From: Eledone cirrhosa
Lineage: Eukaryota
DNA length: 64,000 nucleotides
Direction of reading: 5' to 3'
Assembly: GCA_964016885.1 (NCBI GenBank)
Contig: OZ024751.1
Coordinates: 50,654,001-50,718,000, forward strand
Part shown: piece by piece, positions 1,220 to 63,234 of the stretch
How positions within the stretch are numbered: the stretch's first letter is position 1
Layout of the letters: every line of letters starts with the position of its first letter
Made by a program: the position numbers and the translations under genes
Notes under the pieces: model-generated
Told to the model about the DNA's origin: nothing
What the model saw: only the letters and a program-made list of their open reading frames with translations
Databases searched by the model: none

Positions 1220-1276
1220 ATATAAATTAATAAAATAATGAATAAACAAAGAAACAGTTCCTTATATTAAAAAAAT

Positions 1277-1418: not shown

Positions 1419-2070
1419 TATTTGTTTATTGAAAAAAACAAAGATTCAATACAATAGGTCTGTTTGGGAACAGGTTTTGAATTGACTAATAGAGAGATAG
1501 TGAGGGTCAAGATAGTAATATAGTAGTAGAAGAACCTTAAATTATGGGTAGAGGAAGGTAGATTTCAGTTTTGGATGGAAAAGAATATTATGAATGAAGG
1601 ATTATTTTAGGGAAGAAAATAGGTCATATGCTGACCTCAGAAATAAATATATTTGTTCATTGAATAAAACCAACAAACATCTAATATATTGTGTCTGTTT
1701 GGTAAGAGGTTTAGAATTAACCAATAGAAAGTTAATAATTGGCCAAATGGTAAAATAGTAGTAACTGAAGCTTATTTTAGGGGTGAAAATAGGTCAGGTG
1801 GTCAGTAAAAGGTATACAAGCAGTTGCTGTTATAAAATAGTAATGCCAATGTAAATATCTAAGGAGACTAAAGTTTTACGATAAGAGTGTTAGTGAAAAA
1901 AATACATCTATGAAAAGAATATAAATCAATTTAATTGATGGGTATATTTAAAATGATAAAATTATACTAATACATATAGATATGATAAATAAGAGTTAGA
2001 TGAAGTTAAAAAGTGCTGTTAAAGATGAGGGGAAATTAAGAGAATATAAAAATAATATATATATATACAC

Positions 2071-2171
<101 letters not shown>

Positions 2172-2179
2172 AATATATA

Positions 2180-2226
<47 letters not shown>

Positions 2227-3343: not shown

Positions 3344-4915
3344 TTAACTGTATACTTTGTGAAAAGTTCTATGGAATTTATGCAGGCAGATAGAAAACAA
3401 ATCTGTACGTCTATTTATTATAGAATCTAGGTTAGAGATAATGGTAAATTTTTCATTTAGGCAGAGATTACAGATTTTAGATAGAGAGCTGTTCAAGTAT
3501 GAGGATGCAGAAGAAATCTTCTTCCAAAAGATGGTATATTTAATGTTTTTGTCTTTTAAGGACCATATGAGTTCTGAGAGAGCAGTGTTGGTTCTTTTAA
3601 GTTTGTATTTGAAAGATGAATGATGATTATAGAGACGAGCTTTAAAAGAGGTGGAAGTGGAGCCAAAATAGGTGAAGGAATTGGTGCTAGTTATAATTTT
3701 ACATTCATAAATTAAGTTTTTATCGAGACAATGGTTGTTGAGAGGACATTTATTTTTAATGCGGCAGTTGCAATTAGAGAGATTATTAATGAGTGACCTA
3801 GTGTTATCTATAGAAGGAATTGGATTGGAGAAGTTGTTTGCGATAGGAATAATAGGAATAATAGTTTCTTGATTTAGAGTTGGATTATGAACATTTAGCG
3901 AAGTTGTGTTTGACGTTGTATTTGGGTTTACAGAAGTTAGCCTAGGGTTTACAATGACGTCGGGAGTACTATTACTGTTATTATGAAATTCAATATTGGA
4001 AGGAAGAGATTTAGTATTTAGTATTTTATTGTTGTGTTTAGAGATGATGTTGGAAATATTGGAGGATGTAGAATACGAAAATTTGATGGTGTGTTTGTTA
4101 AATATTTTACTATAGATATGTGAGGGAGGGAAGCATTTATTTAAGGCACTAAAAAATAATTTAGGAATATTGTTATTAATAGAGATGGAGAAAGGAGCAT
4201 TATACCAGATTATGTTTTTGTATCTAGGTCTTTTATTAAAATTATTGGAATGGTCATGATTAATTATTCTACTGTAAGTTTTTCTAGAATTTGTTTCTTT
4301 ACTATATTTGATTTTATCTGGATAGCCGGCTTTAGAAAGTGCGTTATTATAGTAATTGGCGTTAGCATCAAAGATGTTTTTATTAGAAGATATGTTAGAT
4401 ATTCTTTTTCCAATATTATTAACTATAGCATTCTTGATATTGGTAGGATGGTTAGATTTAAAGTTAACATAATTTAGGTTCTCATTGTTTTTATGGTAAG
4501 GGTAATATAGGCCAGTGTCAAGATTAAGAGATACATCCAAGAAATTAGCTAGTTTGATACTATTATCAAATTCAATTTTTAGGTTATGTTGGTTAAAGAG
4601 ATTACGTATATTGTTCTTAATAATATTAAGGTTAACTATATTGCAATTTAGGATAGTAAAGAGTCCATCGTCACGATAAATTCCACCGCGGAGTTGAGGA
4701 ATTTTCCGACTCAAAGAGTTCAAAATGAAGATACCAATTAAATCAGTCAATTGGGATTAATCGGATGCTCCCATTGTGATGTCGAAGTTGTTAGAGGTAT
4801 CGGCTCTGGTCCAATATTCGTTGTTGAACTCTAGGATGGTTTTACGTGCGGTGAGGATGATGTGAAGTTCATCTGTGGTGATGTCAGAATATTTAAGTGC
4901 GAAAGATAGAGCATT
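3344..4915 (-). pseudogene. Penelope-like RT + GIY-YIG endonuclease, 5'-truncated, with premature stop
   Basis: YRDD motif, FLDVSL, CNCRIKNKCPLNNHC, IY...YFGSTSTSFKARLYNH, CNLC..CLH. Homology continues upstream of the called ORF through an in-frame TAA at 4759-4757 (NFDITMGASD*SQLTD) to about 4915 (NALSFALKYSDITTDELHII). Confidence 0.93.

Positions 4916-5005: not shown

Positions 5006-5010
<5 letters not shown>
4919..5010 (+). mobile_element. Inverted PLE 3' tail fragment
   Basis: TGTATACTCCA...GAGTGCTTCTTAT resembles the family-B tail (ACTCCA...GAGTGCTTTTATAT). Ends ...TACAT into (AT)n. Confidence 0.6.
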
Positions 5011-5044
<34 letters not shown>

Positions 5045-5152
5045 AATATATAATATATATAATATATATATATATATATAATATATATATATATAATATA
5101 TATATATATAATATACAATATTAAATAAATGGAAAACTATATTTATAAAACC

Positions 5153-5229
5153 ATATTTATTTCATTATATATATTTCGGGGATATCATATTAACAATATG
5201 CTATGCCTTCATCAGACAAAATACAATAT
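5153..5229 (-). ncRNA. Type I hammerhead ribozyme
   Basis: Reverse complement of 12354-12430. Confidence 0.82.
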
Positions 5230-5586
5230 AAACAGTTTTATAGATAAATATATTCGACATACCGTAATAAACATCAACTTCATTTGAAGAGGTTTAGTCT
5301 AGCAGTGAAAATACAGAGAGAAAGAAAGAGAGAAAGAAAAGAGGGAAAAAACGAAAGAAAGAAAGACAAAACGAAGAAAAGGAAGAAAAAGAAGAAAAAG
5401 AAAAAGAAGAAATGCATGGAACAAAATAGAGAGATGGAAAAACAGATAAAGTGAAGAGCTTCATGTAAAGAGACAGAAAGATATATATATATAGAGAGAG
5501 AGAGGAAATAGAGATAGATACATATATATATATATAGAAAATTAGGTAGTGGGAGGTCATTTTGAGTAAGTGTATCAATGATACAT

Positions 5587-5629
<43 letters not shown>

Positions 5630-6703
5630 GCTCAAGTATTAATGTAAGGGAGATATATAGAGAGATATAGAGAGATATAGAGAGATATAGAGAGATATAG
5701 AGAGAGAAAAAAATTAAAAAATATCCAGACATATTCGAGGCGTAGAAAACCCTATGTTTTAATGTATTAGTATTTATAAAACTTACACTACACTGTAAAT
5801 ATCAGTATTCCTGAATGAAACAAGTATTCACAATGTGTGAAAATTGATTATCTTATGTTTAGTTTTAAAAATTCATATGTCTATGTGACAGCTACAAATC
5901 TCAATGTGAATCCAACTGATTCACTCCGCAAACTCTAAGTTATCGGAAAACATTCTCAATGTGGTATAAAAATTTGAGCGTATTATTATTCTTGCGATTA
6001 CTCTACAAGATTATCTATCAAGCAGAAATAGAGAGCAGATTTCAATATACTAATCGAAAATATATATTATATTATAAACATAATAATAAGTAAAAATATA
6101 GAATAGAAAACTAAAAAAATATTACGAAAGAATATTACATAATAAAAATATTGCATATTAAAAATACTACGTATTAAAAAATATTACGTATTAAAGATTT
6201 ACATATAAAAATTTACATATAAAAATATACATATAAAAATTTACATATAAAAATTTACATATAAAAATATATAAAAATATTTAAAAAAATAAATAAAATA
6301 AAAATAAAAATAAAAATGAAAATAAAAATAAACCACAAAAAAACAACCCTTCAAAGTTAATTGACAATATATTGCCACGTTCACTACAAGACAAAGCCAA
6401 AAATTATCTATCAAATCACATCTAGCAAAGAATATCGTAAAAAGATTATGATGTCCAATTATGTCTACATATGTTCCTATGTTTAATATAGAAGTTTATC
6501 TAGTGTAAGGTTAATTCAAAAAATTTGGAGCATCGGCTTTTAGGGTAGCTTAATTTTTCATGAGGAATGTTTAGATAAAAATAAAAATAAAAATAAATAA
6601 AATAAAATAAACAATAAAAAGAGTAAAACGAGGGAATCAAAGATTTAGGAATCAAAAGATTTATCGGCTAGTTCTCATATAAATATAAATCAAACTAAAT
6701 ATA

Positions 6704-8542
6704 CTACATTTTAAATTTAAATTTATATTTAAACGTTGAGTTTAATCTATGTTTGCAACAACTGAATAAATTTGTCCGTAGGTTAAGGGAGTTTTTAGAT
6801 TTTAGTATAAAGAATATCTCCTCTGCACAGAGGTCACATGTCTCAGAGGATGAATTAAAAGGAATCCCTCTTGAGACTATATTCCAAGCCGTCGAATATC
6901 TAACGTTATCTAGCTTAAGTTGCCAGAGTACCCCTGATAGTGCCGTTGAAGATTTTTTATTTGGATCTGTGAAAGAATTCTTGTGGTTATTATAGCGAAG
7001 TTTAAATTCCGTCGATGTGGAACCGACGTAGTTAAAAGAATTAGAGTCAGTATTAACATTACAATTGTATACTATATTTTTAACTAAGCAGTTGTTATTT
7101 AACGGACATTTAGATCTATCTCTACAGTTACATTTGTTAACTTGTATATTATTTATGCTATTATCAGTAGGTTTTAAGTTCCTATTATTTATTCTATTAA
7201 TATTTTGTGCTAAATTTTTGGTGGATGAGTAGGTTAATTTAATTGTATGCCTATTGAAGATTGAGGGATACCTATGTGTTCTAGGGAAGCGATTATCAAG
7301 AGCTTTGAAAAATAATTTAGCGATGTGGGTTTTAATGTTTAGTGAGAAAGGGGGGGCAAACCAAATTATGTTCCTAGTTCTATTTCTTTTTTGTCCTTTG
7401 GAATTATTGTAATGCTTTCTATTATAGTTGTTAATGTTGTTGCCGTAATTAAAAAAGTTGTTACTTTGTTTAGTTTGTCTATCATTATCTATGTATACAA
7501 TCTTATCAGCATACCCTGCCCTAGCTAGTGCATCATTATAGTATTGGGCCTTTTCGTCAAAAATCTTTCTATTCGACGAGATCCTAGAGATACGTTTTTG
7601 GACTGAGTTTACTATAGTGTTTTTGACAGATCTGGGGTGGTTAGAGTTAAAGTTGACATAGTTTAAGTTTTCATTCAACTTGTGAAAAGGATAGTGGAGA
7701 CATGTGTTGAGATTTAATGTTATATCTAGGAAATTGACTATTCTATGGTTGTTCTCAATTTCTATTTTAAGGTTAAAGTAATTAAAAAATTTTGTAATTT
7801 GTTTACATTTTCTATTTAGTTCAGGGTTATTATTATTAATAAGTAAAAGCATGTCATCCCTATATAAACCTCCGGTAGTACCAGGTATTTTCCTATGTAG
7901 CGAATTGATTAAAAATAAGCCCACAAGGTCAGTTACCTGAGCTGAGTCGGAAGATCCCATAGTTATGTCAAAATTGCTATCTCTATCTGCTCTAGTCCAT
8001 AATTTGTCATTAAATTCTATCAGAGTTTTCCTAGCCGATAATATAATATGCATTTCTTTGCTAGTTAGGTCCGTATGTTTGAATGCGTAATTTAGTGCCC
8101 TATTTAGTAGACTAGGGGTAATAGAAGAATAATAGTTAGCTATATCAAGTTGAATAAACCTATTATTATTGTCATATTTAATTTGCCTAAACCACTCAAC
8201 AACCTCTCCAGTTCCCTTCCACAAGCTCAGGTTAGATACACAATCCAAGTTCTTAATTTGTAGTATCACCCTGTCAAGAATGCTTTTACTTAATTTTCCC
8301 AGGTCCGATTTTGAAGGTGCGATCAATCTCACTGGCAGGTCATTTTCAAAATTGCTCTTGTGGTCCTTCATATTGATCTTCGGTTTCCTGGGCACGAAAG
8401 GTTGTGTTCTGTTCTCAATTTCCAACTCATGCATTATACAAGATGCTTCAACATTCATTTTCTCAAGTTCGGCCTTATCTGCTACCTTGTATTTTTTCCT
8501 CAGCTCTTTCAGTATGAGGCCATTATACATGTCTTTCCGCAC
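6704..8542 (-). pseudogene. 5'-truncated inverted copy of the PLE RT-GIY-YIG ORF
   Basis: 612 aa essentially identical to residues ~126-737 of the 8663-10876 product; lacks the N-terminus. Confidence 0.93.
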
Positions 8543-8546
8543 TCCA

Positions 8547-8620
8547 TCGAGTGCTTTTATATCAGTTATAAATATTTACTAGTTGTAACCCAACAATTTT
8601 AAATATAACTTTACATGTAT
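8547..8620 (+). repeat. 74-bp direct terminal repeat (pseudo-LTR remnant), second copy at 12489-12562
   Basis: TCGAGTGCTTTTATATCAGTTATAAATATTTACTAGTTGTAACCCAACAATTTTAAATATAACTTTACATGTAT occurs at both sites, and again at ~21417-21490. Confidence 0.92.
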
Positions 8621-8662
8621 CTTGCTCCAATACTGTTGAGCGCTTTATATTATAACTGAAAA

Positions 8663-10876
8663 ATGGAATTCTTTAAGATTACTTCCTCTCTAAAAGACAT
8701 ACCTCTACCTAGAAACAAAGACTTTGTAAAACAACTAATAGATAAATCTGACTCTTTTATAAGGAGAATCAGGTGGCGTGCATTCCACTTTGATAAATCT
8801 AATGCAGACGAAAATATCTCGGACTTAAACAAAGTTTTCAAATCTAAAAGAAATCCACCCCCTAACAAACTTTTATCTGACTTTGAAAACGATATAATTT
8901 CTATCATACAAGGGGTCAAATTTAAGAGAAACTTTAAAGGCCAGGAATATCTGAAAGGCATTAAGAATAACATTGAGAGCTTAGAGAAAACTGAGAAGAT
9001 CTTGGTGAAATCTGACAAGACCAACAACCTCTATGGAGTGCGGAAAGTGATGTATAATGGCCTCATACTGAAAGAGCTGAGGAAAAAATACAAGGTAGCA
9101 GATAAGGCCGAACTTGAGAAAATGAATGTTGAAGCATCTTGTATAATGCATGAGTTGGAAATTGAGAACAGAACACAACCTTTCGTGCCCAGGAAACCGA
9201 AGATCAATATGAAGGACCACAAGAGCAATTTTGAAAATGACCTGCCAGTGAGATTGATCGCACCTTCAAAATCGGACCTGGGAAAATTAAGTAAAAGCAT
9301 TCTTGACAGGGTGATACTGCAAATTAAGAACTTGGATTGTGTATCTAACCTGAGCTTGTGGAAGGGAACTGGAGAGGTTGTTGAGTGGTTTAGGCAAATT
9401 AAATATGACAATAATAATAGGTTTATTCAACTTGATATAGCTAACTATTATTCTTCTATTACCCCTAGTCTACTAAATAGGGCACTAAATTACGCATTCA
9501 AACATACGGACCTAACTAGCAAAGAAATGCATATTATATTATCGGCTAGGAAAACTCTGATAGAATTTAATGACAAATTATGGACTAGAGCAGATAGAGA
9601 TAGCAATTTTGACATAACTATGGGATCTTCCGACTCAGCTCAGGTAACTGACCTTGTGGGCTTATTTTTAATCAATTCGCTACATAGGAAAATACCTGGT
9701 ACTACCGGAGGTTTATATAGGGATGACATGCTTTTACTTATTAATAATAATAACCCTGAACTAAATAGAAAATGTAAACAAATTACAAAATTTTTTAATT
9801 ACTTTAACCTTAAAATAGAAATTGAGAACAACCATAGAATAGTCAATTTCCTAGATATAACATTAAATCTCAACACATGTCTCCACTATCCTTTTCACAA
9901 GTTGAATGAAAACTTAAACTATGTCAACTTTAACTCTAACCACCCCAGATCTGTCAAAAACACTATAGTAAACTCAGTCCAAAAACGTATCTCTAGGATC
10001 TCGTCGAATAGAAAGATTTTTGACGAAAAGGCCCAATACTATAATGATGCACTAGCTAGGGCAGGGTATGCTGATAAGATTGTATACATAGATAATGATA
10101 GACAAACTAAACAAAGTAACAACTTTTTTAATTACGGCAACAACATTAACAACTATAATAGAAAGCATTACAATAATTCCAAAGGACAAAAAAGAAATAG
10201 AACTAGGAACATAATTTGGTTTGCCCCCCCTTTCTCACTAAACATTAAAACCCACATCGCTAAATTATTTTTCAAAGCTCTTGATAATCGCTTCCCTAGA
10301 ACACATAGGTATCCCTCAATCTTCAATAGGCATACAATTAAATTAACCTACTCATCCACCAAAAATTTAGCACAAAATATTAATAGAATAAATAATAGGA
10401 ACTTAAAACCTACTGATAATAGCATAAATAATATACAAGTTAACAAATGTAACTGTAGAGATAGATCTAAATGTCCGTTAAATAACAACTGCTTAGTTAA
10501 AAATATAGTATACAATTGTAATGTTAATACTGACTCTAATTCTTTTAACTACGTCGGTTCCACATCGACGGAATTTAAACTTCGCTATAATAACCACAAG
10601 AATTCTTTCACAGATCCAAATAAAAAATCTTCAACGGCACTATCAGGGGTACTCTGGCAACTTAAGCTAGATAACGTTAGATATTCGACGGCTTGGAATA
10701 TAGTCTCAAGAGGGATTCCTTTTAATTCATCCTCTGAGACATGTGACCTCTGTGCAGAGGAGATATTCTTTATACTAAAATCTAAAAACTCCCTTAACCT
10801 ACGGACAAATTTATTCAGTTGTTGCAAACATAGATTAAACTCAACGTTTAAATATAAATTTAAATTTAAAATGTAG
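8663..10876 (+). CDS. Penelope-like retroelement polyprotein: reverse transcriptase + C-terminal GIY-YIG endonuclease (737 aa, apparently intact)
   Basis: N-terminal SLKDIP; KSDKTN; LDIANYYSSI; ITMGS; YRDD; FLDITL; linker CNCRDRSKCPLNNNC; IVY...YVGSTSTEFKLRYNNH; CDLCAEE; CKH. Confidence 0.95.
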   Translation: MEFFKITSSLKDIPLPRNKDFVKQLIDKSDSFIRRIRWRAFHFDKSNADENISDLNKVFKSKRNPPPNKLLSDFENDIISIIQGVKFKRNFKGQEYLKGIKNNIESLEKTEKILVKSDKTNNLYGVRKVMYNGLILKELRKKYKVADKAELEKMNVEASCIMHELEIENRTQPFVPRKPKINMKDHKSNFENDLPVRLIAPSKSDLGKLSKSILDRVILQIKNLDCVSNLSLWKGTGEVVEWFRQIKYDNNNRFIQLDIANYYSSITPSLLNRALNYAFKHTDLTSKEMHIILSARKTLIEFNDKLWTRADRDSNFDITMGSSDSAQVTDLVGLFLINSLHRKIPGTTGGLYRDDMLLLINNNNPELNRKCKQITKFFNYFNLKIEIENNHRIVNFLDITLNLNTCLHYPFHKLNENLNYVNFNSNHPRSVKNTIVNSVQKRISRISSNRKIFDEKAQYYNDALARAGYADKIVYIDNDRQTKQSNNFFNYGNNINNYNRKHYNNSKGQKRNRTRNIIWFAPPFSLNIKTHIAKLFFKALDNRFPRTHRYPSIFNRHTIKLTYSSTKNLAQNINRINNRNLKPTDNSINNIQVNKCNCRDRSKCPLNNNCLVKNIVYNCNVNTDSNSFNYVGSTSTEFKLRYNNHKNSFTDPNKKSSTALSGVLWQLKLDNVRYSTAWNIVSRGIPFNSSSETCDLCAEEIFFILKSKNSLNLRTNLFSCCKHRLNSTFKYKFKFKM

Positions 10877-11940
10877 TATATTTAGTTTGATTTATATTTA
10901 TATGAGAACTAGCCGATAAATCTTTTGATTCCTAAATCTTTGATTCCCTCGTTTTACTCTTTTTATTGTTTATTTTATTTTATTTATTTTTATTTTTATT
11001 TTTATCTAAACATTCCTCATGAAAAATTAAGCTACCCTAAAAGCCGATGCTCCAAATTTTTTGAATTAACCTTACACTAGATAAACTTCTATATTAAACA
11101 TAGGAACATATGTAGACATAATTGGACATCATAATCTTTTTACGATATTCTTTGCTAGATGTGATTTGATAGATAATTTTTGGCTTTGTCTTGTAGTGAA
11201 CGTGGCAATATATTGTCAATTAACTTTGAAGGGTTGTTTTTTTGTGGTTTATTTTTATTTTCATTTTTATTTTTATTTTTATTTTATTTATTTTTTTAAA
11301 TATTTTTATATATTTTTATATGTAAATTTTTATATGTAAATTTTTATATGTATATTTTTATATGTAAATTTTTATATGTAAATCTTTAATACGTAATATT
11401 TTTTAATACGTAGTATTTTTAATATGCAATATTTTTATTATGTAATATTCTTTCGTAATATTTTTTTAGTTTTCTATTCTATATTTTTACTTATTATTAT
11501 GTTTATAATATAATATATATTTTCGATTAGTATATTGAAATCTGCTCTCTATTTCTGCTTGATAGATAATCTTGTAGAGTAATCGCAAGAATAATAATAC
11601 GCTCAAATTTTTATACCACATTGAGAATGTTTTCCGATAACTTAGAGTTTGCGGAGTGAATCAGTTGGATTCACATTGAGATTTGTAGCTGTCACATAGA
11701 CATATGAATTTTTAAAACTAAACATAAGATAATCAATTTTCACACATTGTGAATACTTGTTTCATTCAGGAATACTGATATTTACAGTGTAGTGTAAGTT
11801 TTATAAATACTAATACATTAAAACATAGGGTTTTCTACGCCTCGAATATGTCTGGATATTTTTTAATTTTTTTCTCTCTCTATATCTCTCTATATCTCTC
11901 TATATCTCTCTATATATCTCCCTTACATTAATACTTGAGC

Positions 11941-11979
<39 letters not shown>

Positions 11980-12353
11980 ATGTATCATTGATACACTTAC
12001 TCAAAATGACCTCCCACTACCTAATTTTCTATATATATATATATGTATCTATCTCTATTTCCTCTCTCTCTCTCTCTATATATATATCTTTCTGTCTCTT
12101 TACATGAAGCTCTTCACTTTATCTGTTTTTCCATCTCTCTATTTTGTTCCATGCATTTCTTCTTTTTCTTTTTCTTCTTTTTCTTTTTCTTCTTTTTCTT
12201 CCTTTTCTTCGTTTTGTCTTTCTTTCTTTCGTTTTTTCCCTCTTTTCTTTCTCTCTTTCTTTCTCTCTGTATTTTCACTGCTAGACTAAACCTCTTCAAA
12301 TGAAGTTGATGTTTATTACGGTATGTCGAATATATTTATCTATAAAACTGTTT

Positions 12354-12430
12354 ATATTGTATTTTGTCTGATGAAGGCATAGCATATTGTTAATATGATA
12401 TCCCCGAAATATATATAATGAAATAAATAT
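12354..12430 (+). ncRNA. Type I hammerhead ribozyme
   Basis: Stem I ATATTGTATTTTGT/ATGAAATAAATAT; CTGATGA 12368-12374; stem II with CATATT/AATATG; GAAA 12406-12409; palindromic ATATATAT; cleavage predicted after 12417. Confidence 0.82.
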
Positions 12431-12562
12431 GGTTTTATAAATATAGTTTTCCATTTATTTAATATTGTAAATATACTCCAAATATTTGTCGAGTGCTTTT
12501 ATATCAGTTATAAATATTTACTAGTTGTAACCCAACAATTTTAAATATAACTTTACATGTAT

Positions 12563-13803
<1,241 letters not shown>

Positions 13804-14102
13804 TGAAACAAAATGAAAACGAAATTTCATTTCTCACTCTTAGTATGGCACTTACTTAAATGTAAGTATGCATGTATACGTACATACATATATGTATACA
13901 GACGTACAGTAGCATGCACACATATATATATACATATATACATACATATGCATACAGGTACACATACATATATGCACGTATCAGTTTAGCGGCGCTTATT
14001 ATAACGTCGCTTTGTTCGTTTGTAAACAAACTGAACAGCCTGAATTTATGCCATACGGTGTTAAGGCAACCACGTCACCTATTTGTTCAACACTGACACA
14101 GG

Positions 14103-14147
14103 AACGATGTACTAGTTTCAAGCTTGTTAGCTATCATCAGCACCGTT
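14103..14147 (-). ncRNA. Minimal type I hammerhead ribozyme
   Basis: AACGGTG CTGATGA tAGCT aaca AGCTt GAAA CTAG TA / CATCGTT. Confidence 0.88.
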
Positions 14148-14576
14148 TACCCATCTGCCAGATAGTTGAACGTTCGAAAGTATATACTTTCCTTATGAAA
14201 ATTAACGGCTGAGCAGCCTAATTTGCATATTGAGTGAGTTAAATCGGTCAGGCATACCGAAAACGATAAATTGAAACAAAATGAAAACGAAATTTCATTT
14301 CTCACTCTTAGTATGGCACTTACTTAAATGTAAGTATGCATGTATACGTACATACATATATGTATACAGACGTACAGTAGCATGCACATATATATATATA
14401 TATATACATATATACATACATATGCATACAGGTACACATACATATTTCCACGTATCAGTTTAGCGGCGCTTATTATAACGTCGCTTTGTTCGTTTGTAAA
14501 CAAACTGAACAGCCTGAATTTATGCCATACGGTGTTAAGGCAACCACGTCACCTTTTTGTTCAACACTGACACAGG

Positions 14577-14621
14577 AACGATGTACTAGTTTCAAGCTTG
14601 TTAGCTATCATCAGCACCGTT
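14577..14621 (-). ncRNA. Minimal type I hammerhead ribozyme (second tandem copy)
   Basis: Identical to 14103-14147. Confidence 0.88.
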
Positions 14622-14678
14622 TACCCATCTGCCAGATAGTTGAACGTTCGAAAGTATATACTTTCGAACGTTCAACTA

Positions 14679-18002: not shown

Positions 18003-18133
18003 ATACATGGAAAGTTATATTTAAATTGTTGGGTTAACAACGAGTAAATATTTATAACTGATATAAAAGCACTCAACAAGTATTTGGAGTATATTTATGA
18101 TATTACATAAATGGAAACTATATTTATAAAACC

Positions 18134-18210
18134 ATATTTATTTCGTTATATATATTTCAGGGATATCATATTAACAATATGTTATGCCATCTTCAGACAA
18201 AATACAATAT
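18134..18210 (-). ncRNA. Type I hammerhead ribozyme (CUGAAGA variant)
   Basis: Reverse complement of 18353-18429. Confidence 0.8.
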
Positions 18211-18352
18211 AAACAGTCTTATAAATAAATAGATACGACATACCTTTCAATCACCTTGCATTTGTGAGGTTGATTTGGCAGTTGCCAAATCAACCTCACA
18301 AATGCAAGGTGATTGAAAGGTATGTCGTATCTATTTATTTATAAGACTGTTT

Positions 18353-18429
18353 ATATTGTATTTTGTCTGAAGATGGCATAACATATTGTTAATATGATAT
18401 CCCTGAAATATATATAACGAAATAAATAT
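18353..18429 (+). ncRNA. Type I hammerhead ribozyme (CUGAAGA variant)
   Basis: ATATTGTATTTTGT CTGAAGA ... GAAA TATATATA / ACGAAATAAATAT; G-U to G-C compatible change in stem I relative to family B. Confidence 0.8.
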
Positions 18430-18483
18430 GGTTTTATAAATATAGTTTCCATTTATGTAATATCATATATATATTATATATAT

Positions 18484-18553: not shown

Positions 18554-18638
18554 ATATATATTATATATATATATATTATATATATATATATTATTTATAT
18601 ACAATATTAAATAAATGGAAAACTATATTTATAAAACC

Positions 18639-18715
18639 ATATTTATTTCATTATATATATTTCGGGGATATCATATTAACAATATGCTATGCCTTCATCA
18701 GACAAAATACAATAT
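18639..18715 (-). ncRNA. Type I hammerhead ribozyme
   Basis: Same sequence as 5153-5229. Confidence 0.82.
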
Positions 18716-19080
18716 AAACAGTTTTATAGATAAATATATTCGACATACCGTAATAAACATCAACTTCATTTGAAGAGGTTCACTCTAGCAGTGAAAATAC
18801 AGAGAGAAAGAAAGAGAGAGAGAAAAGAGGGAAATAGGAAAGAAAGAAAGACAAAACGAAGAAAAGGAAGAAAAAGAAGAAAAAGAAAAAGAAGAAATGC
18901 ATGGGACAAAATAGAGAGATGGGAAAATAGATAAAGCGAAGAGCTTCATGTAAAGAGACAGAAAGAGATATATATATATATAGAGAGAGAGAGGAAGTAG
19001 AGATAGATACATATATAAATATAGATATAGAAAAATTAGGTAGTGGGAGGTCATTTTGAGTAAGTGTATCAATGATGCAT

Positions 19081-19119
<39 letters not shown>

Positions 19120-20248
19120 GCTCAAGTATTAATGTAAGGGAGATATATAGAGAGATATAGAGAGATATAGAGAGAGAAAAAATTTAAAAATAGCCAGACA
19201 TATTCGAGGCGTAGAAAACCCTACGTTTTAATGTATTAGTATTTATAAAACTTACACTATATTGTAAATATCAGTATTCCTGAATGAAACAAGTATTCAC
19301 AATGCGTGAAAATTCATTATCTTATGTTTAGTTTTTTAAAAAATTCATATGTCTATGTGAATCCAACTGATTCACTCCGCAAATTCAAAGTTACCGGAAA
19401 ACATTCTCAATGTGGTATAAAAATTTGAGCGTATTATTATTCTTGCGATTACTCTAAAAGATTATCTATCAAGCAGAAATAGAGAGCAGATTTCAATATA
19501 CTAATCGAAAATATATATTATATTATAAGCAGAGATAACAATAATAATGATAATAAGTAAAAATATATAAAAAAAATATAAAAATATAGAATAGAAAACT
19601 AAAAAAGAATATTACGAAAGAATATTACATAATAAAAATATTGCATATTAAAAATACTACGTATTAAAAATATTACGTATTAAAACTTTACATATAAAAA
19701 TATTAAAAATAAAAATTTACATATAAAAATATTAATAAAATAAAAAATATTATAGAATACTACAATACTAAAAGAATAAAAATAAAAATAAAAATAAAAA
19801 TAAAAATAAAAATAAAAATAAAAATAAAAATAAAAATAAAAATAAAAATAAAAATAAAAATAAAAATAAAAATAAACCACAAAGAACAACCCTTCAAAGT
19901 TAATTGACAATATATTGCCAAGTTCACTACAAGACAAAGCCAAAAATTATCTATCAAATCACATCTAGCAAGGAATATCGCAAAAAAAGATTATGATGTC
20001 CAATAATGTCTACATATGTTCCTATATTTAATATATAAGTTTATCAAGTGTAAGGTTAATTCAAAAAATTTGGAGCATCGGCTTTTAGGGTAGCTTAATT
20101 TTTCATGAGGAATGTTTAGATAAAAATAAAAATAAAAATAAATAAAATAAAATAAACAATAAAAAGAGTAAAAAGAGGGAATCAAAGATTTAGGAATCAA
20201 AAGATTTATCGGCTAGTTCTCATATAAATATAAATCAAACTAAATATA

Positions 20249-20496
20249 CTACATTTTAAATTTAAATTTATATTTAAACGTTGAGTTTAATCTATGTTTG
20301 CAACAACTGAATAAATTTGTCCGTAGGTTAAGGGAATTTTTAGATTTTAGTATAAAGAATATCTCCTCTGCGCAGAGGTCACATGTCTCAGAGGATGAAT
20401 TAAAAGGAATCCCTCTTGAGACTATATTCCAAGCCGTCGAATATCTAACGTTATCTAGCTTAAGTTGCCAGAGTACACCTGATAGTGCCGTTGAAG
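20249..20496 (-). pseudogene. C-terminal fragment of the PLE GIY-YIG region
   Basis: STALSGVLWQ...CDLCAEE...CKHRLN matches the end of the 737-aa ORF. The N-terminal part of the called 112-aa ORF is read-through from the inverted arm. Confidence 0.9.
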
Positions 20497-20877
20497 TATA
20501 TTGAAATCTGCTCTCTATTTCTGCTTGATAGATAATCTTGTAGAGTAATCGCAAGAATAATAATACGCTCAAATTTTTATACCACATTGAGAATGTTTTC
20601 CGGTAACTTTGAATTTGCGGAGTGAATCAGTTGGATTCACATAGACATATGAATTTTTTAAAAAACTAAACATAAGATAATGAATTTTCACGCATTGTGA
20701 ATACTTGTTTCATTCAGGAATACTGATATTTACAATATAGTGTAAGTTTTATAAATACTAATACATTAAAACATAGGGTTTTCTACGCCTCGAATATGTC
20801 TGGCTATTTTTAAATTTTTTCTCTCTCTATATCTCTCTATATCTCTCTATATATCTCCCTTACATTAATACTTGAGC

Positions 20878-20916
<39 letters not shown>

Positions 20917-21281
20917 ATGCATCATTGATACACTTACTCAAAATGACCTCCCACTACCTAATTTTTCTATATCTATATTTATATATGTATCTATCTCTAC
21001 TTCCTCTCTCTCTCTATATATATATATATCTCTTTCTGTCTCTTTACATGAAGCTCTTCGCTTTATCTATTTTCCCATCTCTCTATTTTGTCCCATGCAT
21101 TTCTTCTTTTTCTTTTTCTTCTTTTTCTTCCTTTTCTTCGTTTTGTCTTTCTTTCTTTCCTATTTCCCTCTTTTCTCTCTCTCTTTCTTTCTCTCTGTAT
21201 TTTCACTGCTAGAGTGAACCTCTTCAAATGAAGTTGATGTTTATTACGGTATGTCGAATATATTTATCTATAAAACTGTTT

Positions 21282-21358
21282 ATATTGTATTTTGTCTGAT
21301 GAAGGCATAGCATATTGTTAATATGATATCCCCGAAATATATATAATGAAATAAATAT
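21282..21358 (+). ncRNA. Type I hammerhead ribozyme
   Basis: Same sequence as 12354-12430. Confidence 0.82.
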
Positions 21359-21603
21359 GGTTTTATAAATATAGTTTTCCATTTATTTAATATTGTAAAT
21401 ATACTCCAAGTATTTGTCGAGTGCTTTTATATCAGTTATAAATATTTACTAGTTGTAACCCAACAATTTTAAATATAACTTTACATGTATTATTTATATA
21501 TATATTATATATATATATATTATAAATATATATATATTATATATATATATATTATATATATATATTATATATATATATATTATATATATATATATTATAT
21601 ATA

Positions 21604-22100: not shown

Positions 22101-25100
22101 TCAGGATTTGGGCACCATGGCCCATTCGAGAAGAGAATTACTGTTTGCGGAGACATATCCGGGTGTGGGTGGTTTGTCCGGGATTACTTGGAGGAATTTG
22201 TCCAAAGACTTCATGAATTTTGTGTGGTCAGTTTCTGTTTTGACGTGTCCTGGTGTGATGTTGAAGAGAGCAGGGCCGATTGAGGTGAAATAATTGTGCC
22301 GTATTGTTGTTATGAGTTGCGATTTAGATTTTTGAATGGGACGGATAGCACGGGGCCCAAGCCTTGGGTGTATCTTGAAGGCGATGCCAACATCATTTGG
22401 GCAGTGATGATGGAACATTTTCCACATCATGCAGATAATATAACGCTCACGGCGACGTTGGAGTGAGTAAAGTTTCAGGTTTTCTAGTCGACCCCAGTAG
22501 TCAAGGTCTGACATGCCATCTATCTTTTTCGTGATTGCCCTTTGAGGAGCTTCAAGTGTCATGATACTTTGTTTCGAGTGGGGAGACCACAGTGGACAAC
22601 AGTATTCAAGGTGTGGTCGGACAAAAGTAGAGAAGAGAAGGATAATGGTGTGGGAATCTCTCGACTGGAAGGTTCTGAGGATCCAGGAACACATTCTGCG
22701 GGCCATGTCAACTTTGCTGCTTATATGCGTGGCCCAGCTTATGTTGCTGTCCACGGTTACTCCCAAGTCTCTGATGTTGTTAGATGCCACGAGAGTTTCC
22801 CCGGAGGGAAGGGAGTACGGGAGTTTCAGAGCATCCTCTTTTCCAAAGTAGATCAGTTCGAATTTGTCTTCGTTCAGTAACATGTTGTTCTTTTCCGCCC
22901 ATTGGGTAACAGCCAGTAGGTCTGACTGAAGTTTTATCCGGTCATCCACGCCATTGATGACCTTTTGGAGCTTGGAATCATCAGCGAAAATTTTAATGTT
23001 GCTGTGTTTGATGATGTCAGTGATGTCATTAATATAGATGATGAAGAGAAGTGGGCCCAACACAGTGCCTTGTGGGACCCCACTACTGACTTTGGCTGGG
23101 CTGGATTTGACTCCTTCAACTACAACATGTTGGGTTCTATTTGACAGGAAGCTCTTGATCCACTGCAGCAGCTTTCCAGTGACACCAATATTGGACAGCT
23201 TTCTCAGTAGAATGTTATGATCAACCCTGTCAAAGGCCTTGCTGAAATCAAGGTAGATAACATCAGTGTTGGAACCCTCTCCCAAGGCTCTCAAAATGTC
23301 ATCAAAGTGATGCAGTAGCTGCGTCAGGCAATCCCTTCCATTACGGAATCCATGCTGGTTGGAGTTCAGCATATTGTTACTCTCAAGGAAGTGGGTCATT
23401 CGCGATCTCACCACTCTCTCAAATACCTTAATGATATGAGAGGTGAGTGAGATTAGACGGTAATTCACGGCAAGGGATTTGTTTCCCATTTTGAAAACTG
23501 GGACAACAGACTGGGATAGAAGGTTTTCTGGCACATATCCAGCATCCAGTGAGTTCCGCCACAGATTGGCAAGAGGAGATGCAAGTTGGTGTTGACACGC
23601 CTTCAAGACACAAGCAGGGAACCTATCGGGACCTACTGCTGAATTATGCTTGATTTCCTTTATTGCCGCCAAGACATCAGGGGCGCCAAACTTTATGTCC
23701 GATAAGGTGTAATGGGGAGTAACATCGCCGATACAGCCCAGATCGGCCATATCAGGATTGCTGAAAACAGAGCAGTATTGTTTCTGCAGTATCTCACCCA
23801 TGGTTTTAGCATTGTCTTGAAGAGTGCCATTTTCATCAATTAGAGGGCCAACAGTAGAGCCAGTGATTTTGTGTTTTTTTGCAAATGAAAAGAACACTTT
23901 GGGATTGAGTTTGATCTTCTCAATGGCCCAGGCCTCTTCAGCTCTTCTCTGATTGTTGATGAGGGACATTATGTTGTTTTGGAGGTTATGTTTTTTAATC
24001 TCTAGTGATGAAATGGCAGTCAAGTTGATGTGTTGCTGCTGACAGTATTTCAGCTTGTTGATTTTTTTGTTCGTTCTCTTAATTTTTCTGATGAGCGTTT
24101 TTCTATTTCTAGGGATTCTGCTCTTAGATTTGTTTATAGTTCTTAATGGGGTGTGTTTTGCACATATGTTTGTAACAGTGTCCACAAATGTCTGCCAGGA
24201 CTTTTTGATGTTAGTGGGTGTATGAGTGTGCGTGAAGGACCAGTCGACATGTGCAAGATCATGACTGATCGCTTCCCAGTTTGCATTGTGGAAATCCATA
24301 GCGTCAAACGGATGGACAGAAGAGATGACATTGGGTTTGTATATTGGATGGTGGAATCTCAGATCACAGAGAACCATGTCATGATCAGAGAGTAGAGTTT
24401 TCTCCACTGCAATATTGTGGATATTGTCAGTGTGATTGCTGAAAATTAAGTCTAGGACGTTTTTGTGGCACCTCGTTGGTTCGAGCACCAGTTGGGATAG
24501 GAAGAAATCATCCATGAAGTCAAGAAGCGATTCCACTGCTTCCCTGTCAGAGGTTGAGGCAGAAGAACCTGGTGGCAGGCTGTTTGTGGACCAGTCAACT
24601 CCGGGGAGGTTGAAGTCCCCCATCATTAAGATGTTGTCAGGGTGACACTCTTGGATGAAACACTTTATGCTGTTGAGGCATTCCTTGAAGCATGGTACAG
24701 GCGTTTGGGGTGGCCTATAGAGCCCAACTACTATTAGGTTGTTGGTTTGACTAAATACAGTGACTGCTTCACAGTATCCATTAGTGAATATGTTCATAGC
24801 TTCTGTTGAGAAAGAATTATGGACATAAATGGCAGTTCCGCCCTTTCTTCTGCCAGCGCGATCAGCACGGATGGCTTTGAAATTTTTCACTTTCACCTCG
24901 GCTTCCAAGTGGAGGTTACTGAGATGGGTTTCAGTGAGGACGAAGAAAGGGATGTGGTTTGGATGGACATCAATCCAGTCCTCCAGGAATTTGATCTTCC
25001 ATTTTTGAGTATTGGTGGAAGGGCTGATGCCTTGGGCGTTAAGCAAAAATGTAGAGGCGAGAGTGGATGGTTTTAATTGTTTTGGTGTGTTGTTAATTTG

Positions 25101-25121
25101 TTTGTTTGTTAATGGCAGCAA
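22101..25121 (-). CDS. LINE ORF2: apurinic-like endonuclease + reverse transcriptase (1006 aa)
   Basis: NAQG, LTETHL, YRPP, GDFNLP, LDLIF, SDHD (APE); LDFSKAFDRVDH, GVPQGTVLGPLLF, FADD (RT); RPHLEYC..WSP and RL..L.L.SL..RR typical of CR1-group C-termini. Confidence 0.95.
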   Translation of the reverse strand: MLPLTNKQINNTPKQLKPSTLASTFLLNAQGISPSTNTQKWKIKFLEDWIDVHPNHIPFFVLTETHLSNLHLEAEVKVKNFKAIRADRAGRRKGGTAIYVHNSFSTEAMNIFTNGYCEAVTVFSQTNNLIVVGLYRPPQTPVPCFKECLNSIKCFIQECHPDNILMMGDFNLPGVDWSTNSLPPGSSASTSDREAVESLLDFMDDFFLSQLVLEPTRCHKNVLDLIFSNHTDNIHNIAVEKTLLSDHDMVLCDLRFHHPIYKPNVISSVHPFDAMDFHNANWEAISHDLAHVDWSFTHTHTPTNIKKSWQTFVDTVTNICAKHTPLRTINKSKSRIPRNRKTLIRKIKRTNKKINKLKYCQQQHINLTAISSLEIKKHNLQNNIMSLINNQRRAEEAWAIEKIKLNPKVFFSFAKKHKITGSTVGPLIDENGTLQDNAKTMGEILQKQYCSVFSNPDMADLGCIGDVTPHYTLSDIKFGAPDVLAAIKEIKHNSAVGPDRFPACVLKACQHQLASPLANLWRNSLDAGYVPENLLSQSVVPVFKMGNKSLAVNYRLISLTSHIIKVFERVVRSRMTHFLESNNMLNSNQHGFRNGRDCLTQLLHHFDDILRALGEGSNTDVIYLDFSKAFDRVDHNILLRKLSNIGVTGKLLQWIKSFLSNRTQHVVVEGVKSSPAKVSSGVPQGTVLGPLLFIIYINDITDIIKHSNIKIFADDSKLQKVINGVDDRIKLQSDLLAVTQWAEKNNMLLNEDKFELIYFGKEDALKLPYSLPSGETLVASNNIRDLGVTVDSNISWATHISSKVDMARRMCSWILRTFQSRDSHTIILLFSTFVRPHLEYCCPLWSPHSKQSIMTLEAPQRAITKKIDGMSDLDYWGRLENLKLYSLQRRRERYIICMMWKMFHHHCPNDVGIAFKIHPRLGPRAIRPIQKSKSQLITTIRHNYFTSIGPALFNITPGHVKTETDHTKFMKSLDKFLQVIPDKPPTPGYVSANSNSLLEWAMVPKS

Positions 25122-26270
25122 TGGGAGTTTGTGCAGTGGGGTGATAGTGGAGGGTGGTGCTGGGTGATAGCTCGAATGTTTTTTTCCAGTTCTTTTGCCA
25201 GATTCATTATGGCTAAAAAAGAGGAAGAAGTTTCCTGTTTAGAAGACTGTTGGTGACTGTGGTAGTGGTTATTTTTATGTAGGTTATGGTTTTTGTTTTT
25301 GCTTTTATTTTTAATTTTATTTTCATTTGTCCGACGGGTCCCCGGGAGATGGGTAAAGGGACAATCCCGGTCTAAACACAATCTGTCTCGCAGGGAAAAG
25401 CGGCAGATTTGTGGATTCCCTGTTTGAGTTATTGGTGGTTGTGTTGGTGTTAAATTAGAGTATGTATTATGGTGGTGGCTGTTTGTGGGGATAGATCGTT
25501 TTGTCTAGGTAAATGGGTCAATTTGCAGCCACTATCCGTACATATTCTATAGCGTAGAGAGTAGCGGCAAATGATGGGTTTCGAGTGGGTGGGTATGTGG
25601 GTGTGTGTGTTGTGAGAGGTGTAGATGATGGTTTGAGTAGGATTTGACGACCTTTGTGGACTCTGGGAGGGAGAGTTCTTGTTCTGGTATTAGAAGGTAA
25701 ATTCCTTGAAATAGCAGTAGCCAAAGATGTTGTAGTAGTAGTAGTAGTAGTAGTAGCAGAGAAGATGTGGCAGTGTTGATGATTGGACTGCTGGGCCAGA
25801 GAAAGGATGTGGCGTTTCCTGCTGTGAGACAGCGGCTACTGGGAGGTCAATAGTTTCATTAGTAGATCGGCCATTGTTGATGAATCAAGGAGTGGTTCAC
25901 ACTGTTGTCGTTGTTGTTGTTGCTGTTGTTGATGTTGTTGTTGCTGTTGTTGTTGTAGCTGTTGTTGTTGTTGTTGCCGTTGTAGGCTGCTGTTGTTGTT
26001 GTTGCTACTGCTGGACAGCATTCGAAGAAAAAACACACCCGTAGTTTATCCAAATGTTTATTGATTAATTTAAAAGCAATTTCGATTTGCTTTAATTTAT
26101 TTTGAATCTGTTGTTCAGATCGAGTTTTCAAAAGTTGAACTGTACGTTTAGCAATGTCGTTCAGACATGAAGCATCTATGTCTTCTGTTTGGGTAAGGCA
26201 ATGCCATGTGTTTATTAGAATGTCGATTTCATTATCAGACAGTTCTGTTTGGATTTTTGCTGGTTAGCCA
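25109..26270 (-). pseudogene. Disrupted LINE ORF1 with two CCCH zinc-finger-like motifs
   Basis: CRYSLRYRICTDSGCKLTH (~25570-25513) and CRFSLRDRLCLDRDCPFTH (~25408-25350) lie in different frames, with a stop between them; (CAA)n tract at 25905-26005. Confidence 0.65.
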
Positions 26271-26905: not shown

Positions 26906-28015
26906 CAAGCAGTAAAGCTCGGCGTTGCTCGGGGTCGCTCAGTAGCTGTGTTAAAGTTACAATGTTAAGTTTTTTTCTTGGCTTAAAAACTGTAGTGTCT
27001 ACTGTGCAGACTTGCATGTGGTGTTTTTGATTAATATTCCCTCAACCAACAATATGCCTTATGAAGTTAAGAAAACATAACGATAACCCGAATGTTATAA
27101 CAAAAGAGGATGCTGGGGATAGAAACTGCACTGGTTATTTATTAACAAAGATCGAAAATGTAAACACTGCAACGCAGAGAAAAACATTAGCGTAACCAAA
27201 TTATCAGTTATGTCTGTCTGCACGCCTATATCACCTCTCTGCACGACTGTCTGTCTGCACGCCTATATCACCTCTCTGCACGACTGTCTGTCTGCACGCC
27301 TATATCACCTCTCTGCACGATTGTCTGTCTGCACGCCTATATCACCTCTCTGCACGACTGTCTGTCTGCACGCCTATATCACCTCTCTGCACGACTGTCT
27401 GTCTGCACGCCTATATCACCTCTCTGCACGACTGTCTGTCTGCACGCCTATATCACCTCTCTGCACGATTGTCTGTCTGCACGCCTATATCACCTCTCTG
27501 CACGACTGTCTGTCTGCACGCCTATATCACCTCTCTGCACGACTGTCTGTCTGCACGACTGTCTGTCTACACGACTGTCTGTCTGCACGCCTAACGACGA
27601 AATATTTGCTTGTTTTACGTAGTCTTTAAATAGACTTGTTTTCAAGTAAAAAATATTGTTTTAAAATGCTTTTAAATGGAATGAAGCAAAACGGAAGCTT
27701 AGTGTTCAACTGTTCGTGTATTGTGTTAATGTCATTTTAACGCTGAGAAAGCCAGCGTAATTTTTTTACGTAAGACGCTCAATGTAAACAGAACAAAGGG
27801 AAATAACTGATCACTTACGCTCAAAAATCGATACATTATATTCAATTTCGTCACATAGGGTGGGTCAATTTAAAATTTTTTTTTTTCCGATGTCTTCGCT
27901 AGGGCTCAATGTACAAGTCTAGCAATTTCGGTGCAATTCCGTGAGAGATTCTAAGAGGAGATGTGTGCCAAAAATCGATAGACAGACAGACAACCACAGC
28001 TTTGTACTATATAGA
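26906..28015 (-). mobile_element. Probable non-autonomous Helitron
   Basis: Minus strand starts A|TCTATAT followed by (TGTC)n and ends with degenerate hairpin CCCGAGCAACGCCGAG then CTTG|T (CTRR-like variant). Inserted between A and T in (TA)n. Confidence 0.62.
27211..27592. repeat. 37-bp minisatellite (~9 copies plus partials)
   Basis: Unit CTGTCTGTCTGCACGCCTATATCACCTCTCTGCACGA. Confidence 0.95.
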
Positions 28016-28038
28016 TATATATATATAATATATATATA

Positions 28039-28079
<41 letters not shown>

Positions 28080-28200
28080 TATTATATAATATATATATAT
28101 ATATATATATCTATATAGTATTATATATATATATTATATATATTATTATATATATTATATATATATTATATATATATTATATATATATATATTATATATA

Positions 28201-28247
<47 letters not shown>

Positions 28248-28464
28248 TATATATATTTATATATATATAATATATATTATATTATATATATATTATATAT
28301 ATATATATATTATATATATTATATATATAATATATATATATATTATATATATATGTATTATATATTATATAATATATATATATATATTTATATATATGTA
28401 TATATATTATATATATATATAATACTATATATTTTAAATATATAAATATATTATATATATATAT

Positions 28465-28993
28465 ATAAAAACAAATAACGAAACGAAATTAAATTTCGTT
28501 TCGCTTCTAACTCACTTTTGTATGACTGACGCTTAAACAATTAAGTTAAAGTGTACATCTACATATGTATACGGAAGTATTAGTATGCATATAATACACA
28601 CATGTATACATATGTACATGTACTGAGTTTTTCACTAGACACTTTACAGTGAGTGTCAGCTAGTCTGTATGTAACCACACAGACGGACCGGGTTTTAGAG
28701 TCATACGAGTTTTCAAGGAAACACATTTCTCTATTTTCCAGAGGGCCAGACAGGAATATTGAACTAGTTTCGATGTTATTACATCTCATCAGCAATATTT
28801 ACCCATCTTCCGGCTTCTCTGGAGAATTGTAAAAAGCACATATCGTTATATGCTTTTTCTATGAAAATAGTAGTGGGTAGACTAATTTGCATAGAACGTG
28901 AGTCTTTGTACGCACCGGTTCAGCGGAAACGATAAAAACAAATAACGAAACGAAATTAAATTTCGTTTCGCTTCTAACTCACTTTAACTTAAT
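28465..28993 (-). mobile_element. Second non-coding hammerhead retroelement (retrozyme-like), 467-bp unit with 54-bp terminal redundancy
   Basis: Direct repeat 28465-28518 = 28932-28985. Hammerhead 28755-28799. Shares motif order with 13798-14678; (TA)n flanks. Confidence 0.85.
28755..28799 (-). ncRNA. Minimal type I hammerhead ribozyme
   Basis: AATATTG CTGATGA GATGT aata ACATC GAAA CTAG TT / CAATATT; perfect stems I and II, cleavage after GUU. Confidence 0.92.
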
Positions 28994-29007
28994 ATATATA
29001 TATATAT

Positions 29008-29039
<32 letters not shown>

Positions 29040-29108
29040 ATAATATATATATTTTAAATATATATATATATATATTTTAAATATATATATATATATTATA
29101 TAATATAT

Positions 29109-29282
29109 ATATTTATTAAAATAACAGATTAAAGTTTAAGCAAAGGAATCGCTGCTTTCACCCTTGCTTAAACTTTAATCTGTTATTTAATAAATATTTG
29201 CTCTACGGTTCTTATATATTTGATATATATTTTCCTTATCGAACCCTCTTTGGATTTTAGTTTCAATTTTATTATTATTACT
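29109..29282. mobile_element. Miniature inverted insertion, probably termini of another PLE family (second copy at 63061-63207)
   Basis: Inverted arms 29109-29143 / 29164-29197 plus an 85-nt one-sided tail. Both parts match 63061-63207 with a different junction. Confidence 0.65.
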
Positions 29283-30876
<1,594 letters not shown>

Positions 30877-30907: not shown

Positions 30908-31107
30908 NNNNNNNNNNNNNNNNNNNNNNNNNNNNNNNNNNNNNNNNNNNNNNNNNNNNNNNNNNNNNNNNNNNNNNNNNNNNNNNNNNNNNNNNNNNNN
31001 NNNNNNNNNNNNNNNNNNNNNNNNNNNNNNNNNNNNNNNNNNNNNNNNNNNNNNNNNNNNNNNNNNNNNNNNNNNNNNNNNNNNNNNNNNNNNNNNNNNN
31101 NNNNNNN
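30908..31107. other. Assembly gap (200 N)
   Basis: Run of N; round length suggests a scaffolding placeholder. Confidence 0.99.
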
Positions 31108-61735: not shown

Positions 61736-61769
61736 CTAGTATATTAAATCATTTTCTTTTACTGCTATC

Positions 61770-63207: not shown

Positions 63208-63234
<27 letters not shown>

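Follow-up and report, generated by a model that had tools for sequence, protein, structure and literature searches.

Positions 28465-28993 of the window (the whole 64,000-nt stretch of Eledone cirrhosa DNA analysed here) most probably hold a non-autonomous retrozyme mobilised by a Penelope-like element (PLE) that targets (TA)n arrays. The segment has the sequence-level features of an animal non-LTR retrozyme, namely a hammerhead in each unit, a head-to-tail repeat, a non-coding unit and a self-paired predicted circle. Both it and a divergent cousin family at 13.8-14.7 kb display (TA)n-footprint traits in the form of a partial tandem, an inverted 5' piece and a microsatellite target (two insertions). 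The class, animal retrozyme, and its PLE link are already known; new here are the conserved predicted fold of the whole unit, the fixed 3' end and the PLE-type footprint.

Extent, ends and target site

The element comprises one complete unit, the 5' part of a second one and a short inverted piece, set within (TA)n:

28465-28931, minus strand: full non-coding unit of 467 nt; longest stop-free stretch 72 codons, circular reading included
28932-28985, minus strand: 5' partial second unit, an exact 54-nt repeat of 28465-28518, head to tail
28980-28993, minus strand: fold-back 5' end of 14 nt, the reverse complement of 28540-28553
28008-28467, no strand: (TA)n array of the target, 3' of the element, from repeat content
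28992-29116, no strand: (TA)n array of the target, 5' of the element, from repeat content

All 54 nt of the repeat are identical, the period is 467, and the element at 28465-28985 totals 1.12 units with a single ribozyme and (TA)n on both flanks. We found no LTR, PBS or PPT in the 467-nt unit; the 54-nt repeat is a partial unit. Its interpretation as a target-site duplication was rejected because numerous other copies share this joint and the repeat is 400 nt long in the cousin. The fold-back consists of a 6-nt microhomology plus 8 added nt, the final 3 of them TA-like; given the microhomology and a TA flank, it arose by chance in 39 of 20 000 random trials, and a fold-back 5' end is present in the cousin as well. 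The junction with (TA)n reads TTTAT in both elements and the next letters of the unit would be CGTTT, in agreement with the initial annotation, which had placed both joints at the same point.

A small repeat (~150-170 bp) is also found in TA arrays of the window at 29111-29285 and 63041-63225. The two copies are near-identical outside one block, the first contains an internal inverted duplication of ~30 nt, and one end of the repeat resembles the cousin 3' end (TTTCAATTT..AT), with no ribozyme seen in the two copies. Elsewhere there is an open LINE ORF of 1045 aa (22101-25238, minus strand) with APE endonuclease and reverse transcriptase domains, a 26-kb satellite with a 25-bp unit and very strong strand skew (31108-57586) that adjoins an assembly gap (30908-31107), and a SINE-like repeat of ~190 bp in several direct and inverted copies (60779-62235), presumably an octopus SINE. 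The 64-kb window contains no tRNA genes.

Two families, their ribozyme and their predicted fold

The cousin family was delimited as follows:

13798-14678, minus strand: cousin family, 1.84 units in (TA)n, with the same 3' end and two hammerheads
14098-14156 and 14572-14630, minus strand: cousin hammerheads, from the motif
14666-14678, minus strand: cousin fold-back 5' end of 13 nt, at a 16-nt palindrome

The initial annotation had described the two as divergent families of the same retrozyme-like element and proposed a pairwise alignment among its checks. That alignment bears the description out: the units are collinear and 60% identical (299 of 499 columns of a global alignment), with a score of 314, where 300 dinucleotide shuffles average 120.6 ± 12.2 and peak at 174 (z = 15.9). 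The first ~230 nt have 10 9-mers in common (mean 0.28, with 0 of 1000 shuffles as high), and each of the sense-strand blocks that had been named is present in both units, their order unchanged. As for the periods given there, 467 was correct, while 468 holds only at the cousin 3' end (13798/14266) and becomes 474 at its ribozyme (14140/14614), a shift caused by a 6-nt TA indel. The cousin's two units differ by 3 substitutions and one 6-nt indel; since a single pass around a circle would give identical units, either later mutation or a mixed multimer template is needed. There is no ORF between the cousin's two ribozymes, and an RT/GIY-YIG ORF between the repeats is absent from both elements.

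The ribozyme of the 467-nt unit is of the canonical metazoan type:

28750-28808, minus strand: type I hammerhead ribozyme, from Rfam HH9 and the pairing pattern

Its core, CUGAUGA...GAAA, is intact at 28792-28768. Stem I has 7 and 5 bp with a UA bulge between them, stem II has 5 bp and the loop AAUA, and stem III has 2 bp with the palindromic ACUAGU. Across both families stem II measures 4-5 bp, and neither hammerhead has an extra base after the core. The annotated statement that the stems differ in sequence and still pair is right for stem I, including its extension beyond the UA bulge in both families; for stem II it has to be qualified by a U.U at the base in the cousin. The HH9 match spans the full model length at 29.5 bits (E = 4e-5) and does not reach the gathering score of 52, which explains why a scan of the whole window at the gathering threshold returned 0 Rfam matches. 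Searching metagenome contigs and viral contigs with the hammerhead pattern gave 0 loci in each.

Among the 19 hammerhead pairs compared between unit and cousin, 5 are changed on both sides yet paired, 1 is replaced by U.U in the cousin and the remaining 13 are invariant. The covarying ribozyme of the initial annotation is thus upheld for two sequences, with more cases within the family (below). Counts as high were obtained in 14 of 500 shuffles and slid controls gave 0-1 such pairs, so that, with two sequences only, the covariation between the families is suggestive. Cleavage is predicted after 28762, at a GUU triplet in the 28465-28993 copy and at GUA in the cousin. Hammerheads prefer NUH triplets, GUC being the best. 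With one ribozyme and GUU, the 28465-28993 copy probably cannot make a monomer alone. The two-consecutive-ribozyme rule for an 'active' copy (Li et al., cited in full below) separates the cousin, which has two, from this copy, which has one and is a monomer-type copy in that scheme; the distinction concerns copy activity, not family membership.

Circular folds are predicted to be 67% paired in both units (z = -8.2 and -9.0, 40 shuffles each) and the linear fold has z = -8.8 (0 of 100 shuffles as low), values that owe something to a self-complementary AU-rich arm. The predicted circular folds have an identical series of helices in both families: a small hairpin past the terminus, the ACUCAC long-range helix, the UAUGCAAAU hairpin, a palindromic hairpin, the extended ribozyme arm, a second long-range helix, hairpins, the long AU-rich arm and a terminal hairpin. 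Blocks common to both families are mostly helix arms or ribozyme core. The main parts are:

28898-28903, minus strand: ACUCAC block, predicted long-range pairing with GUGAG near 28515-28511
28860-28893, minus strand: invariant hairpin UAUGCAAAU / AUUUUCAUA with a C.U mismatch, from the predicted fold of both families
28520-28706, minus strand: second long-range helix, 28706-28699 pairing with 28527-28520 around hairpins and the AU-rich arm 28623-28553
28477-28505 (again 28944-28972), minus strand: terminal hairpin, then a U-rich tract, 3' end at ~28465, from the fold and a bacterial promoter/terminator scan

The ACUCAC/GUGAG helix is predicted to close the RNA body (mean pair probability 0.98 here and 0.97 in the cousin). 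The first two helices are nearly invariant between the families and hence uninformative on covariation, and invariance likewise leaves the ACUCAC helix without covariation support. In the second long-range helix all 8 pairs are maintained in the cousin, 2 of them changed on both sides, and in the terminal hairpin 1 of 8 pairs is changed two-sidedly, from C-G to U-A. The hairpin at 28690-28657 (H3) fits the cousin more poorly, with 1 compensatory and 2 broken pairs of 8, and was left out of the covariation count because a gap makes its register arbitrary.

The 5' arm of the 28860-28893 hairpin corresponds to what we take to be an octamer-type DNA motif, ATGCAAAT, which is retained upstream of the ribozyme in both families. 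An octamer drives transcription of newt satellite 2. A promoter role for the motif is only a lead here, since it also forms an arm of the invariant RNA hairpin. Two sets of search results were set aside: Rfam miRNA-family matches at 28550-28625, far under the cut-offs and due to the AU-rich hairpin, and 17 metagenome loci with the ACTCAC/octamer pattern, attributed to chance, where 0 of 17 had the partner arm, a downstream hammerhead core or a TA array.

Among 24 listed public sequencing runs, none of which is an RNA run, 20, from 15 studies, contain the stretch or part of it, and 8, from 5 coded organisms, have a share of at least 0.2. Four of the 24 (X1, X2, X6 and X23) were compared in detail against one unit, with small-share rows left unused. 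Run X1 contains a 499-nt wrap-around contig of the whole unit (5 other letters, 4 gaps, depth 2.4) and its counterpart in X6 measures 497 nt and belongs to a variant that has diverged further; the two contigs come from two organisms and neither has an ORF. A wrap-around contig is no proof of long arrays, since any copy with a terminal repeat of more than 31 nt yields one. The 619 contigs of X2 (the family is multi-copy in organism B) have the head-to-tail joint at a depth of 6278, and in X23 (RAD reads) 318 reads with 50 starts run across this joint, which is also present in X1.

Variation within the family respects the predicted pairing. The 40 listed variants (16 further ones fall outside the count) include 23 at unpaired sites, 8 that keep a pair, 4 that are compensatory and 5 that break a pair, against 14.1 ± 2.3 pair-breaking variants expected (0 of 5000 draws as low). 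Two compensatory pairs were found within the family, at 28773/28784 in stem II and at 28743/28817 (unphased variants); the former sites vary in 156 of 564 and 173 of 590 reads of X23 (27-29% each, unphased). The cut triplet is GUC in the X1 contig, the X6 contig and 191 of 535 reads of X23, so the GUU of the 28465-28993 copy is one family variant. A loop III variant in 184 of 540 X23 reads loses the strict palindrome, with pairing still possible through G.U. Six X2 contigs depart from the unit ~10 nt past the ribozyme (before 28752) into unlike sequence with a sense ATG, and are either another subfamily or a coding PLE with the same ribozyme.

Molecule ends in X23 cluster at six places. Five of these (28492, 28542, 28828, 28868 and 28884) are at AATT, which we take to be the sites of an AATT cutter, and the sixth, 28669, is not and is probably due to a second enzyme. 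Low-agreement loose ends at the AATT places were dismissed as cuts made in library preparation. The internal AU-rich palindrome, and not a fold-back end, was taken as the origin of opposite-strand joints near 28550-28657, and record 2 of X1 (36 nt, 6 differences) was rejected as unrelated.

Mobilisation route and alternatives

The window itself contains a candidate helper:

8660-10876, plus strand: open Penelope-like ORF of 738 codons with Hydra-clade motifs, in (TA)n

Its RWR, DKT, CxCx5C, CxxC and CxH motifs fit the Hydra-clade description; Pfam returned no family for either PLE ORF, and the clade assignment of both is by motifs. The closest named relative is from Argonauta hians, at 39% identity. 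In this coding PLE, part of the sequence is repeated upstream and an inverted 5' copy occupies 5010-8551, with imperfect microhomology at the join; in combining a partial tandem and an inverted 5' piece with a (TA)n target, it follows the plan of the two small elements. Neither unit nor cousin has any sequence in common with the two local PLE families beyond TA-rich matches, and the local coding PLE ribozymes have long stems II, unlike the retrozyme units. The echo of a PLE 'terminus-then-signal' arrangement seen by the initial annotation is therefore a loose likeness of layout, not of sequence. An autonomous PLE carrying the common blocks, which it suggested looking for, was found neither in the two local families nor in the accessible part of the Craig et al. 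supplement (PMC8557442), where three blocks gave 0 exact hits in line-wrapped text on one strand, a weak test.

A second Hydra-type PLE family is represented by a 5'-truncated copy at 1230-4756 (minus strand) with a 470-aa open stretch containing CxCx5C, its own hammerhead-like motif (2319-2273) and an end in (TA)n. Hydra-type insertions also form inverted pairs in (TA)n at 5010-12560, 18005-18470 and 18600-21490, in which one end stops ~45 nt past the ribozyme and the other has a further tail of ~90 nt, exceeding the reported 30-40 bp. We regard this tail as the start of the next unit because its sequence is also found just upstream of the ORF (8547-8620), and the end pairs fit two reverse-transcription start sites. 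The 465-bp PLE end at 18005-18470 is almost perfectly palindromic, its inverted ribozyme-bearing termini being joined by a ~75-nt palindrome of other sequence, and both ribozyme cores read CUGAAGAUG, not CUGAUGAAG.

For the retrozyme we propose the following route. Copies with at least two units would be transcribed from the minus strand, and the transcripts would be cut by the hammerheads, probably as dimers through the palindromic stem III, as motif conservation and published retrozymes suggest; the products would be 467-nt monomers that could close into circles. The RNA is predicted, with covariation, to adopt the conserved multi-branched structure, in which the site UUUAU/CG would lie between the terminal hairpin and the small hairpin, beside the ACUCAC helix. 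A PLE protein would nick (TA)n and begin reverse transcription at this internal UUUAU. The Hydra clade has about an even chance of being the helper, the Naiad clade a distinctly lower one and any other clade a lower one still. The candidate start site is just past the terminal hairpin and 297-312 nt downstream of the cut site, and both families use it, to judge from their common 3' end, despite TA-richer stretches elsewhere in the unit, which suggests from two examples (n = 2 insertions) that its position is set by structure. The footprint shows that copying went beyond a single unit (1.12 and 1.84 units) and passed through the ribozyme cut site, which leaves a circle or an uncut multimer as template, with about even odds. 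The new DNA would then fold back over a few matching letters, with 8-13 nt added, and connect with the TA array on its other side, a step whose footprint is seen at both 5' ends.

A bolder version, to which we give a rather low probability, has the whole 467-nt circle acting as a folded docking platform, so that an unrelated (TA)n PLE enzyme is recruited by shape and its reverse-transcription start fixed at one junction. If true, the intact Hydra-clade ORF alongside would supply the helper to this retrozyme, the start site would be mapped, and circular RNAs could be tested directly as templates for genomic insertion.

It is possible, if on the whole doubtful, that the element is instead a SINE-like PLE passenger moving via linear read-through transcripts, its ribozyme being a relic or a setter of transcript ends, and no circle being formed. 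This overlaps with the retrozyme reading, from which it differs only in the release of monomers and circles and in the template. It would accommodate the non-identical units of the cousin and the GUU of the 28465-28993 copy, as well as published findings that ribozyme cleavage is dispensable for PLE insertion in vitro (PMC11167929) and that, of 9 predicted Xenopus retrozymes assayed as dimers in vitro, 1 cleaved and 8 did not (bioRxiv 10.64898/2026.07.22.740005). However, stems I and II have compensatory changes, both from one family to the other and inside a family, and many copies have GUC, signs that the ribozyme is under selection; and circles accumulate for related retrozymes of mussel, coral and axolotl (PMC7229834).

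The case that the initial annotation had named as its own refutation, that the copies are solo pseudo-LTRs (pLTRs, terminal repeats) of a coding PLE, or alternatively that the unit is a fresh internal-deletion product of an autonomous PLE and moves only with it, appears improbable to us. It is disfavoured by the ORF-free wrap-around contigs of the whole unit in X1 and X6, by the 1.84 units of the cousin that are ORF-free between ribozymes, by the length and predicted fold kept in two families at 60% identity, and by a canonical ribozyme with short stem II, unlike both the PLE minimal hammerhead and the ribozymes of the local coding PLEs. Against certainty stand the X2 contigs that leave the unit after the ribozyme into a sense ATG, the fact that a coding tandem would contain the terminus/CGTTT joint too, and the report that retrozymes are related to pLTRs (bioRxiv 10.64898/2026.07.22.740005); as the ancestry of the unit, a pLTR can still be true. 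An ordinary satellite or chance arrangement, produced by DNA recombination in TA arrays around a coincidental ribozyme-like motif, could draw on the abundant simple repeats of the region and an Rfam match under the gathering score, but is already largely refuted and very improbable given collinear blocks far beyond shuffles, covariation, the agreement of both families in their 3' ends and in having a fold-back at the 5' end, and dispersed short copies.

Comparison with known systems

Animal non-LTR retrozymes, their circles and a proposed PLE dependence are in print (Cervera & de la Pena 2020, PMC7229834; Li, Clavereau & Pollet 2026, bioRxiv 10.64898/2026.07.22.740005), and in the accessible text of these sources their return to the genome (enzyme, template, start site) is proposed, not demonstrated. 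The footprint described here points to one candidate start site and limits the possible helpers to clades that target TA, which makes the proposal testable with the existing in vitro PLE assay; it also adds two retrozyme families for a cephalopod genome. Our literature search, which left most subscription journals and Repbase outside its range, found no paper describing cephalopod or Octopus retrozymes, and a search on the link between Hydra, microsatellites and hammerheads found none on these families; both may be catalogued in Repbase or subscription journals.

The available text of Craig et al. 2021 (PMC8557442) attributes partial tandems, inverted 5' pieces and (TA)n targets to PLEs; it states that Hydra-clade PLEs insert almost always in (TA)n and lists Octopus Naiads as (TA)n inserters. 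With Hydra-clade and Naiad PLEs as described there the elements have in common the target, the partial tandem, the inverted 5' piece and an internal 3' end, and with Hydra elements the carriage of hammerheads. They differ in having no ORF, another ribozyme type and nothing in common with the sequence of the two local Hydra-type families; their two copies have no two-ended 'tail', and the 3' end is ~300 nt downstream of the cut site. An RNA-internal site of initiation has a parallel in the Anolis Poseidon PLE, which in vitro initiates in a stem-loop within the RNA (PMC11167929).

The minimal hammerhead of PLEs is described as having a stem II of 6-8 bp, a short stem I and an extra base that separates stem II from core position 9 (Cervera & de la Pena 2014, PMC4209133, available text). 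In contrast, unit and cousin have a stem II of 4-5 bp, a stem I of 7+5 bp and no extra base. Non-autonomous Chlamys elements such as MRC1 resemble the unit as PLE passengers with pLTRs and head-to-tail copies; according to the accessible text they generally have a helper-like 3' end and mostly miss canonical hammerheads (PMC8557442), whereas the unit keeps its hammerhead and we found no likeness to a helper.

Newt satellite 2 is also a hammerhead repeat with a weak palindromic stem III, and works as a dimer there (PMC7229834); an internal snRNA-type promoter has been reported for it (cited in PMC2220036). As far as the available descriptions go, other animal retrozymes differ from the present families, which occur as dispersed (TA)n insertions of 1.1-1.8 units, their 3' end fixed at one point and their 5' end folded back, and the 467-nt unit is longer than those of invertebrates (170-400 nt). 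The likenesses to animal retrozymes are extensive: a unit that is non-coding, repeated head to tail and low in GC, a canonical type I hammerhead, a highly self-paired predicted circle, no LTR, PBS or PPT, PLEs in the same genome, a length inside the reported 51-972 bp and, in the cousin, the U.U at the base of stem II that is also present in axolotl HHR_Amex2.
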